A DNA stretch of 64,000 nucleotides from Candidatus Omnitrophota bacterium (GTDB lineage Bacteria; Omnitrophota; Gorgyraeia; Duberdicusellales; 4484-171). The stretch covers positions 128,001-192,000 of the forward strand of contig JAIPGM010000002.1 of the NCBI GenBank assembly GCA_021735655.1, written 5' to 3'. Made by a program: the position numbers and the translations under genes. The notes beneath the pieces are model-generated. The model was not told the origin of the DNA, made no database searches, and was given only the letters and a program-made list of their open reading frames with translations. Positions 5,708 to 6,781 of the stretch are shown piece by piece (position 1 is the first letter of the stretch; each line of letters opens with the position of its first letter).

Positions 5708-6781
5708 ATGCAAATAGGGGTTATGGATTTTAAAAATAGTAAAAAGACTTTTACTTTAATTGAAATCGTTATTATTATCGTTATTATCGCTGTCTTAGCG
5801 ACCATAATGATTCCGGTTTATCTTAATACTATCGAAAAATCAAAGCGGACAGCTTGTGAAACAAATCAAAGAGTTCTCCTTGGAGCCTTAGAGTTGTACT
5901 CACTTGAGCATACAGTCTTACCGGCTTCCTTGAGTCAGTTGCCAGATAAGTATTACAAACAGGCCTGGGCAAAAGTTTTATCTGAGCCGGGAAGCTGGAA
6001 GGTAAGGTTGGCTTATGCGATTTCTGAGTTTAGTTTTCAGCAGTTAGCCTATGCGGCTAGTGATTGGTTGCATCAATACATCTCGCCGGCCGGACCAGTG
6101 TGTCCTTCTGATCGTACTCCGCCGCCGATGGACTATTCATATGGTTTAAGTTTTCAGTTTTTTGAAGCAACTGCATTTCAATTTAGAAATGCTAATCCTG
6201 ATGATCTTGTAATTGCCGATAGCAATGATCCAATTTTTTGGCGTCCCGAACCTAGGCATAAAAGTTATGGTATTTTCGGTGCTAATAGATACGGTATTAG
6301 TATTACTCGAGGAAATAAAATTATTTATTATCCGATAAAAAATGGCCAAGGCGATGAAGATGCTGCCGAGGGTATGGGAGGAGAGACCAACCGTTCTGCG
6401 GTTAGCAAACATGAGTGTAAGGTTAAGCGTTGCGCTACTCTTTGGCAAACAGATGATTGGGGTAGCTGTGTTCTTAATTGTGAATCAGCGGGGCCTATTG
6501 AGGATGATGAAGGCGAAAATGTGAACGAAGGCGTGGATGAAGACCATTGCTTTATTGCCACAGCTGCCTATGGGACGGTAATGGCTCAAGATGTAAGAGT
6601 GCTTTCTGAGTTTCGTGATAAGTATCTTTTAAATAATAGTTTTGGGAAAAGGTTTGTAGGAGTTTACTATCGGCTTAGTCCACCAGCTGCAGACTACATA
6701 CGAACTAGGCCGTATCTTAGGAGAGCTGTAAGGGCAATGCTGAAACCAGTGGTTTGGTTAGTAGGGCTCAGTCAAGAGTAA
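5708..6781 (+). CDS. Pilin-like secreted protein: a class III (prepilin) N-terminus, a Cys-containing middle region and a 77-aa CFIATAAYG-type C-terminal domain.
   Basis: KKTFTLIEIVIIIVIIAVLATI prepilin leader and hydrophobic helix. The more likely start is the internal ATG at 5723 (MDFKN...), which matches its paralog. The C-terminal domain CFIATAAYG...FRD.YLL...GR.FV.YY..SPP.A begins at 6548. Confidence 0.6.
   Translation: MQIGVMDFKNSKKTFTLIEIVIIIVIIAVLATIMIPVYLNTIEKSKRTACETNQRVLLGALELYSLEHTVLPASLSQLPDKYYKQAWAKVLSEPGSWKVRLAYAISEFSFQQLAYAASDWLHQYISPAGPVCPSDRTPPPMDYSYGLSFQFFEATAFQFRNANPDDLVIADSNDPIFWRPEPRHKSYGIFGANRYGISITRGNKIIYYPIKNGQGDEDAAEGMGGETNRSAVSKHECKVKRCATLWQTDDWGSCVLNCESAGPIEDDEGENVNEGVDEDHCFIATAAYGTVMAQDVRVLSEFRDKYLLNNSFGKRFVGVYYRLSPPAADYIRTRPYLRRAVRAMLKPVVWLVGLSQE

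Follow-up and report, generated by a model that had tools for sequence, protein, structure and literature searches.

K9L86_01755, a gene from a Candidatus Omnitrophica metagenome-assembled genome (MAG), encodes a modular protein in which a pilin-type helix, a family-specific head, a Cys-rich hairpin and an acidic linker precede a bona fide CFI-box-CTERM domain. We analysed the gene within a 64-kb stretch of contig JAIPGM010000002.1 (positions 128,001 to 192,000), hereafter the window. Coordinates are those of the window, and statements that an enzyme or peptidase gene is lacking refer to its genes unless stated otherwise. The reading frame is unbroken over 5708-6781; GenBank places the start at 5723, for a protein of 352 residues. 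The protein is a 100% match to P0001, annotated 'hypothetical protein' and encoded on a contig of 322,746 bp. Its parts, identified with hidden Markov models (HMMs), profiles, alignment and AlphaFold2 (AF2) models scored by predicted local distance difference test (pLDDT), are as follows.

5708-6781, + strand: pilin-like protein with a CFI-box tail, 357 residues from the first ATG in the list of open reading frames (ORFs)
5723-5749, + strand: short basic leader MDFKNSKKT, ending in Thr where Gly or Ala is expected before a prepilin-peptidase site
5750-5908, + strand: pilin-type alpha-1 (F1-T-L-I-E5), a hydrophobic membrane segment with an amphipathic continuation (HMM, profile, AF2)
5909-6394, + strand: family-specific periplasmic head with invariant C45 and C127, a TPPP motif, SYG and RH (alignment)
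6395-6484, + strand: Cys-rich helical hairpin HECKVKRC...SCVLNCE, the last segment held in common with the adjacent paralog
6485-6547, + strand: acidic low-confidence linker SAGPIEDDEGENVNEGVDEDH ahead of the CFI-box (pLDDT <50 over residues 259-273)
6548-6778, + strand: CFI-box-CTERM domain, short form (HMM match over 6548-6754)

By alignment and in the AF2 model, the pilin module (alpha-1 plus head), the low-confidence linker and the separately folded CFI-box make up a modular-pilin layout. Pfam and PDB searches gave no match for the head, the PDB profile search matching alpha-1 only. Residues 164-227, within the head, were poorly predicted in the full-length AF2 model (pLDDT <50), and a Foldseek search of the whole model against the PDB, with those residues at this low confidence, found no match.

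The C-terminal module was assigned with the NCBIfam profile NF041770 (CFI_box_CTERM), whose curated cut-off is 40 bits. The whole protein scored 94.8 bits (E 2e-27), with profile positions 1-69 of 69 aligned to residues 281-349 of 357 and the match ending 8 residues ahead of the stop; the last 77 residues alone scored 99.6 bits (E 6e-29). All 16 columns invariant among 44 diverse CFI-boxes (C, F, I, A, T, A, G, L, R, Y, Y, S, P, A, R, P) are present in the window protein. Conservation across the domain is near-absolute for CFIATAAYG and for the polar or aromatic residues R33, D34, Y50, Y51, S54 and R72. AF2 predicted a compact domain of four helices, a short one on IATAAY and three longer ones, followed by no transmembrane helix or basic tail; pLDDT was about 71 when the domain was modelled by itself and 87-93 within the full-length model. 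Pfam holds no model for the CFI-box segment, and its members had no recurrent weak Pfam hits. Our searches found no literature on the domain and no structural relative in the PDB. The CFI motif of this gene is the only one within the window.

CFI-boxes form a very large family. A profile built from the 44 diverse CFI-boxes, run against representatives of 50%-identity clusters, recovered 29,307 representatives with E <= 1e-3, of which 21,073 had E <= 1e-10. In contigs representing one genome per species, the exact peptide CFIATAAY occurred at least 600 times (586 confirmed), in bacteria (Omnitrophota, Planctomycetota, Nitrospirota, Chloroflexota, Desulfobacterota, Proteobacteria, Hydrogenedentota and a Desulfoscipio) as well as in archaea (Thermoplasmata, Methanophagales and Ethanoperedens). 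This spread covers monoderms, diderms and archaea; a CFI-box was found in one phage record only. The domain is nearly always C-terminal, typically behind a Gly/Ser-rich linker, and the residue before its Cys is Gly in 124 of 241 sequences and Pro in 12. The original prediction had proposed a catalogued CFI-box-type domain, widespread in bacteria and archaea, at 6548-6781. The NF041770 scores and the survey bear out both the identity and the spread of the domain, and the coordinates are exact, from the first base of the Cys codon in CFIATAAYG to the last base of the stop codon.

Among the 103 closest relatives of this CFI-box, 79 begin with Met and a hydrophobic signal-like stretch, several of them with lipoprotein-like GC motifs. 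As judged by this hydrophobicity test, homologs thus normally carry Sec- or lipoprotein-type leaders, an alternative that the original prediction had proposed checking, and none of the 103 has a pilin-like N-terminus. The same set divides into 48 short forms, in which the C-terminal stretch starting at the Cys is 75-91 residues long, and 55 long forms. The window protein, with 77 residues, is a short form: only GLSQE lies beyond 72 residues from the Cys, and the best 17-residue Kyte-Doolittle mean over its last 30 residues is 1.06. The closest relatives (61-64% identity) include two from Omnitrophota, one from Planctomycetia and one from an unclassified-bacterium MAG, and at the fetched loci four Omnitrophota and two Planctomycetia ORFs are short forms. 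These relationships suggest, at the level of sequence, that the CFI-box was acquired by domain shuffling in the same or a related lineage.

CFI-box genes are often present in several copies per genome, sometimes adjacent (L035, L043, L044, L051, L063, L064, L069, L074), and single MAGs with multiple loci include JBATUN01 (Dehalococcoidia) and CAZNPC01 (Nitrospirales). Such multiplicity suggests paralogous families of putative surface proteins. At L027:5547-7140, the frame of a long form consisting of FN3, CFI-box, transmembrane helix and basic tail stays open, with no stop, through a second signal-peptide-like stretch and into a further FN3-type protein, and four top representatives (P0121-P0124) carry two CFI-boxes each. 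These cases may be read-through fusions of tandem genes.

At the other end of the protein, the N-terminus is homologous to type IV pilin alpha-1 and yet is not a canonical class III signal. Its sequence is KKT followed by FTLIEIVIIIVIIAVLATI, and the leader with the mature start reads MDFKNSKKT followed by FTLIEIVIIIVIIAVLATIMIPVY. From Phe at +1 it has about 20-21 hydrophobic residues with Glu at +5, as in class III signals (FTLIEIVIIIVIIAVLATIMI), and AF2 placed a helix over residues 12-62 with a pLDDT of 80-90. Partial HMM matches were obtained to GspG, ComGC and PilA. A profile of the family matched solved pilins and pseudopilins (Geopilin, GspG 5wda, PilA, PilE and others) with E values of 1.7e-11 to 1e-5, over positions 1-66 only, position 7 corresponding to mature residue 1. 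An ordinary Sec signal peptide was rejected on account of the hydrophobic stretch of about 21 residues, the 50-residue helix and the homology to pilin alpha-1.

The departure from the canonical signal lies in the residue before F1, which is Thr in the window protein and Val in its adjacent paralog. According to a review (PMC10191384), such leaders 'invariably' have Gly or Ala as their last residue. Because it ends in Thr instead, the window protein fails a defining class III feature. At this position, four of the five pilins encoded in a pilus cluster of the window have Gly and the fifth has Ala. PF07963 scored 19.9 bits, below its gathering score of 21.2, and TIGR02532 (threshold 16.3) was not reported for the window protein and reached 16.0 on the paralog. 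With neither Gly nor Ala at -1 and with HMM scores below threshold, the protein is not classed here among canonical type IV pilins. The N-terminal class III prepilin signal of the original prediction therefore stands as far as alpha-1 homology, F1 and E5 are concerned, and falls on the Thr at -1 and the sub-threshold HMM scores.

The combination of the two ends is rare. A word-index search over a 5.8-billion-protein collection, from which unrelated examples could escape, found a pilin-type N-terminus with a CFI-box in two clusters, and the same two proteins, P0001 (the window gene) and its ortholog P0003, are the only members of the pilin-like family with a CFI-box. No pilin-like N-terminus was found on the 88 CFI-box ORFs at 80 species-representative loci or on 136 further cluster representatives, and our literature search found no description of the combination. 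P0003 shares 63% identity with the window protein over 97% coverage, has the same architecture, and occurs on 7 contigs (three of them fetched, from three ENA assemblies). It carries Ala at -1. The CFI-box is the best-conserved segment of the pair, with 76% amino acid identity, a nonsynonymous rate (dN) of 0.134, a synonymous rate (dS) of 0.71 and a dN/dS of about 0.19. By comparison, dN was 0.26-0.28 for alpha-1 and head and 0.55 for hairpin plus linker. Since the ortholog shares the architecture and the CFI-box is under purifying selection, the fusion is real and rare, and not an artefact.

In order to delimit the host family, we used a profile built on the pilin-like part. About 44 clusters scored at least 197 bits; a gap then separates them from DUF1559-type pilin-like proteins, at 97 bits or less. 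The few members with a named source are from Omnitrophota MAGs, and the majority are from metagenome assemblies. Throughout the family, the head that follows alpha-1 spans about 160-200 residues, in which Cys45 and Cys127 are invariant and TPPP, SYG and RH are shared. The tails vary (CxxxC-rich, acidic, basic or low-complexity), and many are Cys-rich. F1 and E5 are mostly kept, whereas Gly or Ala stands at -1 in only ~11 of 41 members (~27%), against 72 of the 73 other pilin-like hits (99%; Fisher p = 3e-17). Residues found at -1 in the family are Ala, Asn, Tyr, Gln, His, Thr, Val, Asp, Gly, Ser and Phe (P0001-P0017, P0257-P0283); the corresponding codons in the window are 5747-5749 in the gene and 6865-6867 in the paralog. 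The simplest reading of these sequences is that selection for peptidase cleavage has been relaxed in the family and that the helix retains some pilin-like interaction.

The gene lies in the order CFI-box pilin-like gene, Cys-rich paralog, CHASE2-HD-GYP gene, with a pilus-type cluster further on.

6841-7845, + strand: tandem paralog K9L86_01760, 334 residues, with the same pilin-like N-terminus and head
8059-10329, + strand: CHASE2-HD-GYP protein, 756 residues, a predicted membrane sensor and cyclic di-GMP (c-di-GMP) phosphodiesterase (Pfam)
13721-31494, + strand: type IV pilus / type II secretion system (T2SS)-like cluster, given as context (STN/secretin, GspE-like ATPase, pilins, GspF, PilM)

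The paralog is 81% identical to the window protein at the amino acid level, with homology stopping at about residue 250-258. Beyond that point it continues into a Cys-rich tail of CxxxC repeats, and the window gene into the acidic linker and CFI-box. The paralog tail (window 7600-7845) is GNCNSACSHNRNVCKQACPNNQGECRKACEDRRDECRNTC; it has a weak, sub-threshold likeness (E 0.009) to TIGR04117, the Cys-Xaa-Xaa-Xaa repeat radical SAM target family. Over residues 41-135 (5843-6127 against 6961-7245), nucleotide identity between the two genes is 92-98%, compared with 72-83% on either side. Such a tract between tandem paralogs suggests gene conversion, as far as can be read from the sequences.

The constant neighbour of the family is the CHASE2-HD-GYP gene, whose product scored 134 bits for CHASE2 and 143 bits for HD_5 in Pfam. 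We collected contexts from the window, L001, L092-L098 and six metagenome loci (L100, L102-L106); the latter came from a metagenome scan for further family loci that returned eight, two of which end at a contig edge and six of which were informative. Downstream sequence was available in 15 contexts, one pair of which is a single sequence recovered from two samples. All 15 have one to four tandem family genes immediately upstream of a CHASE2-HD-GYP gene on the same strand. Intergenic gaps are 0-40 bp in 6 of 9 measured contexts, and no terminator-like site was found among the three genes in the window. The wider flanks vary between loci (V-type ATPase, exonuclease VII, BamA). Divergence of the two partners from the window copies is parallel, at 35-65% and 35-63% identity and in broadly the same order across loci. 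Short gaps, differing flanks and parallel divergence support the view that the pilin-like and CHASE2-HD-GYP genes constitute a putative functional module rather than leftover gene order. CHASE2-HD-GYP proteins are described as uncharacterised in a preprint (bioRxiv 10.1101/2021.11.05.467447). The pilus/T2SS-like cluster was considered as the functional partner of the family; this candidate was weakened by its absence from four contexts (L092, L094, L095 and L096), CHASE2-HD-GYP being always present.

CFI-boxes are not confined to proteins with an export signal. A tblastn search of plasmids returned 25 records, from which eight proteins were read (L084-L091); all score above the NF041770 cut-off (66-84 bits) and lack a signal peptide. 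In these proteins the CFI-box follows an Mrr_cat restriction-endonuclease domain and WYL (Haloquadratum walsbyi PL47), a cold-shock domain and a CxxC...CxxC Cys motif seen in the sequence (a Burkholderia ubonensis plasmid), a TPR repeat (a 5.2-kb Acinetobacter lwoffii plasmid) or a CAP domain (two Paracoccus plasmids). The remaining three are small proteins (141-158 residues) with no Pfam match, encoded near nuclease, phospholipase D, zeta-toxin or transfer genes. The Mrr_cat+WYL and cold-shock domains are related to nucleic acids, and several of the eight proteins have domains of a kind usual in the cytoplasm. PADLOC matched the plasmid-borne proteins in their N-terminal domains only. The invariant Cys is kept in these signal-less members, which argues against a disulfide role and against a simple extracytoplasmic sorting tag.

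No partner enzyme was apparent either. When 1,528 ORFs lying within 6 kb of CFI-box genes at 80 loci were clustered all against all, no non-CFI protein family recurred in more than 5 of the 80; enzymes of this kind are often encoded elsewhere. The window itself contains no sortase-, rhomboid- or exosortase-like gene. An LspA gene at 1851-2330 was considered as a processing enzyme and discounted, the same order IleRS-DksA-LspA-RluD being found in L001, L092, L096 and L098. From its distribution on proteins and its surroundings, we argue that the CFI-box is not simply a sorting signal and is probably an autonomous module.

We favour, with about an even chance of being right, the view that the window protein is an uncleaved, membrane-resident, pilin-like partner of the CHASE2 sensor onto which a CFI-box module has been grafted. 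The hydrophobic pilin-type helix would drive insertion through the signal recognition particle and Sec, leaving the N-terminus inside and the remainder in the periplasm. Given the terminal Thr of the leader (Val in the paralog), prepilin peptidase probably leaves it uncut, and the product would be a bitopic inner-membrane protein rather than a filament subunit. The protein and its paralog would act on the CHASE2-HD-GYP enzyme as co-receptor or membrane-embedded input, via alpha-1, the head or both, and such input would tune c-di-GMP hydrolysis. The CFI-box would be a self-contained four-helix module, whose probable source is a surface protein exported via Sec in the same phylum or a related one, and would add a membrane-proximal attachment or association function rather than a sortase-type sorting signal. 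This attachment or association role is the weakest part of the account.

Several points weigh against this view. The Ala at -1 of P0003 could suit prepilin peptidase, and the conservation of F1 and E5 would be expected if pilus machinery were still contacted. A pilus/T2SS-like cluster does lie 6 kb downstream here and is also present in L001, L093 and L097, and the proposed link to CHASE2-HD-GYP is drawn solely from gene neighbourhood. AF2 modelled the head with low confidence. As to the CFI-box, binding of a uniformly basic domain to anionic lipids was considered and rejected: net charge ranges from -7 to +13 with a mean of +1, so that general electrostatic membrane binding is unsupported; the window protein has +7. 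Finally, the near-invariance of CFIATAAYG, with or without signal peptides, is stronger than mere anchoring requires and may point to chemistry or recognition.

The same observations may be read as those of a true modular minor pilin or pseudopilin, processed by a peptidase relaxed at -1 and incorporated as a low-abundance or tip subunit into a filament of the nearby cluster, where it would display the CFI-box. Homology to alpha-1, retention of F1 and E5, the Ala of P0003 and the secretin/GspE/GspF/PilM/pilin cluster found in the window and near some family members are all consistent with this, and modules grafted onto the C-terminus of pilins are established in Streptococcus sanguinis (PMC8179133, PMC9934059). 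We nevertheless think it unlikely. Besides Thr and Val, the family has Asn, Tyr, Gln, His, Asp and Phe at -1, with Gly or Ala in about 27%, while the cluster pilins of the same window keep Gly or Ala; the window contains no Peptidase_A24 (prepilin peptidase) gene; and the invariant neighbour is CHASE2-HD-GYP, pilus genes being missing in four contexts. The fibre subunit envisaged by the original prediction loses ground for this last reason. An origin of the fusion by misassembly, or by recent recombination of the tandem paralogs with an unrelated gene into a non-functional chimera, is barely credible. The 92-98% tract that suggests gene conversion and the restriction of the fusion to two protein clusters would fit such an origin; an uninterrupted reading frame, intact invariant residues in the most conserved part of the protein (dN/dS of about 0.19), and the same architecture in a 63%-identity ortholog on 7 contigs do not.

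Two further explanations concern the CFI-box itself. It could be a C-terminal sorting or processing signal for a dedicated sortase-like enzyme, so that both ends of the protein would be handled, as originally proposed. The domain is nearly always at the extreme C-terminus, its curators named it '-CTERM', a Gly-rich linker is usual before the Cys, and in 52 of the 55 long forms a hydrophobic 17-mer comes after the domain and, in those sequences that were read, a basic cluster after that, an order that recalls the tripartite signals of sortases. However, the window protein has neither helix nor basic tail after the domain, and in long forms the conserved motif is about 75 residues from the transmembrane helix rather than adjoining it. 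Moreover, the domain is predicted to be a folded helical bundle of about 70 residues, extends across monoderms, diderms and archaea, and is present on signal-less Mrr_cat+WYL, cold-shock and TPR proteins. The nearby sorting enzyme that the original prediction proposed looking for was encoded neither in the window nor recurrently at the 80 CFI-box loci. We regard this explanation as quite unlikely. Alternatively, the CFI-box might process itself: its Cys would undergo an N-to-S acyl shift, and the thioester would be hydrolysed or transferred, releasing or re-attaching the cargo with no partner enzyme and on either side of the membrane. Such chemistry would fit the near-absolute conservation of CFIATAAYG and the six polar or aromatic residues across domains of life, the retention of the Cys in signal-less members, where a disulfide is unlikely, the lack of a partner enzyme encoded nearby, and the flexible, often Gly-rich linker that stops just before the Cys. 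On the other hand, the domain has no conserved His, Pro precedes the Cys in 12 of 241 sequences, and we found no support from literature or fold. This second explanation is very unlikely.

A bolder version of the favoured view, which we put forward tentatively and hold to be improbable as a whole, is that the family consists of uncleaved 'pilin mimics' serving as dedicated input or co-receptor to CHASE2-HD-GYP, one of which captured a CFI-box working in either compartment without an enzyme, by anchoring or by self-processing via its Cys. A CFI-box module active in either compartment would explain why the domain is found on exported proteins as well as on those of cytoplasmic type.

Taken alone, the fusion is a modest curiosity. 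It is also a natural experiment, in that the CFI-box has remained under purifying selection though a pilin-type helix replaces the Sec signal peptide, and it exposes two understudied families: the CFI-box and the pilin-derived proteins locked to CHASE2-HD-GYP. The former numbers about 29,000 clusters spread over bacteria and archaea, yet searches for a publication, a Pfam entry or a structure found none. The latter, if uncleaved, would represent a new class of membrane-resident pilin derivatives, and its strict pairing provides a candidate modulator for CHASE2, a sensor domain with unknown ligands. If this is true, proteins resembling those of type IV filaments would be tied to c-di-GMP turnover in Omnitrophota, represented here by MAGs only.

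Other features of the window were recorded alongside. In the region 13721-37061, the GspE-like ATPase of the pilus/T2SS-like cluster has an MshEN domain, the pilins number five, and an ATP-binding cassette (ABC) transporter ATPase is embedded; the region also encodes giant LamG-repeat proteins of 987 residues (4 LamG) and 1603 residues (7 LamG) that have an N-terminal anchor, 'QTLLYVGFV', in common. The LamG ORF at 24377 (423 residues) starts with KKVS followed by ITLIEAV, the residue at -1 being Ser. Between the CHASE2 gene and this cluster, 10695-13689 encodes a CdsD_C-like protein (149 residues) and a DUF5684 protein (836 residues); both genes recur in L001, and the former also in L098, between the CHASE2 and secretin/ATPase genes. 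A second HD-GYP protein, of the cytoplasmic type (PAS-PAS-HD_5), is encoded at 45569-46921, so the segment encodes at least two predicted c-di-GMP phosphodiesterases.

Compared with known systems, the C-terminus of the window protein is a typical NF041770 member, in its full-length match, position at the extreme C-terminus, CFIATAAYG motif, 16 of 16 invariant columns, flexible linker and short form. It differs in its export element, a pilin-type helix; relatives have Sec or lipoprotein signals, and plasmid-borne members have none. Signals at both ends of a protein are normal for substrates of sortases and exosortases. The idea that two-ended signals are unusual in themselves must be given up; what is unusual is the pilin-type N-terminus, and the combination is rare. 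LPXTG, PEP-CTERM and PGF-CTERM signals are about 25-35 residues long, with a motif adjoining a helix and a dedicated enzyme that co-occurs. The CFI-box shares with them its C-terminal position and, in long forms, the order of motif, hydrophobic helix and basic cluster. In contrast to these signals, it is a folded domain of about 70 residues, often without a helix (as in the window protein), is found on signal-less proteins, and has no recurrent neighbouring enzyme.

The pilin side may be compared with three systems. In S. sanguinis, PilB with its vWA module and PilC with its lectin module likewise combine a pilin N-terminus with a grafted C-terminal module (PMC8179133, PMC9934059). Those modular pilins have canonical class III signals, whereas the window protein has a Thr-ended leader, belongs to a family that has lost the Gly/Ala constraint, and is only putatively incorporated into a filament. 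In Caulobacter, PilA raises c-di-GMP and binds PleC at its first transmembrane helix; the article that describes this also cites the Pseudomonas PilA-PilS case (PMC7196804). These share with the proposed mechanism a membrane-resident pilin helix acting on a sensor; here a pilin-like gene is consistently paired with the gene for a predicted membrane c-di-GMP phosphodiesterase. They differ in that their pilins are structural and cleaved, and in that their sensors are histidine kinases and not CHASE2-HD-GYP proteins. The nearest relatives of the head domain outside the family are the DUF1559 (PF07596)/H-X9-DG proteins of Planctomycetota-Verrucomicrobiota, which likewise have a prepilin-type N-terminus, a periplasmic head and multiple paralogs. 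They are set apart by the gap in score (at least 197 against at most 97 bits), by the failure of PF07596 to hit the window protein, and by their retention of Gly or Ala in 72 of 73 cases. Compared with DUF1559-type proteins, the fixed pairing with CHASE2-HD-GYP is specific to the family of the window protein.

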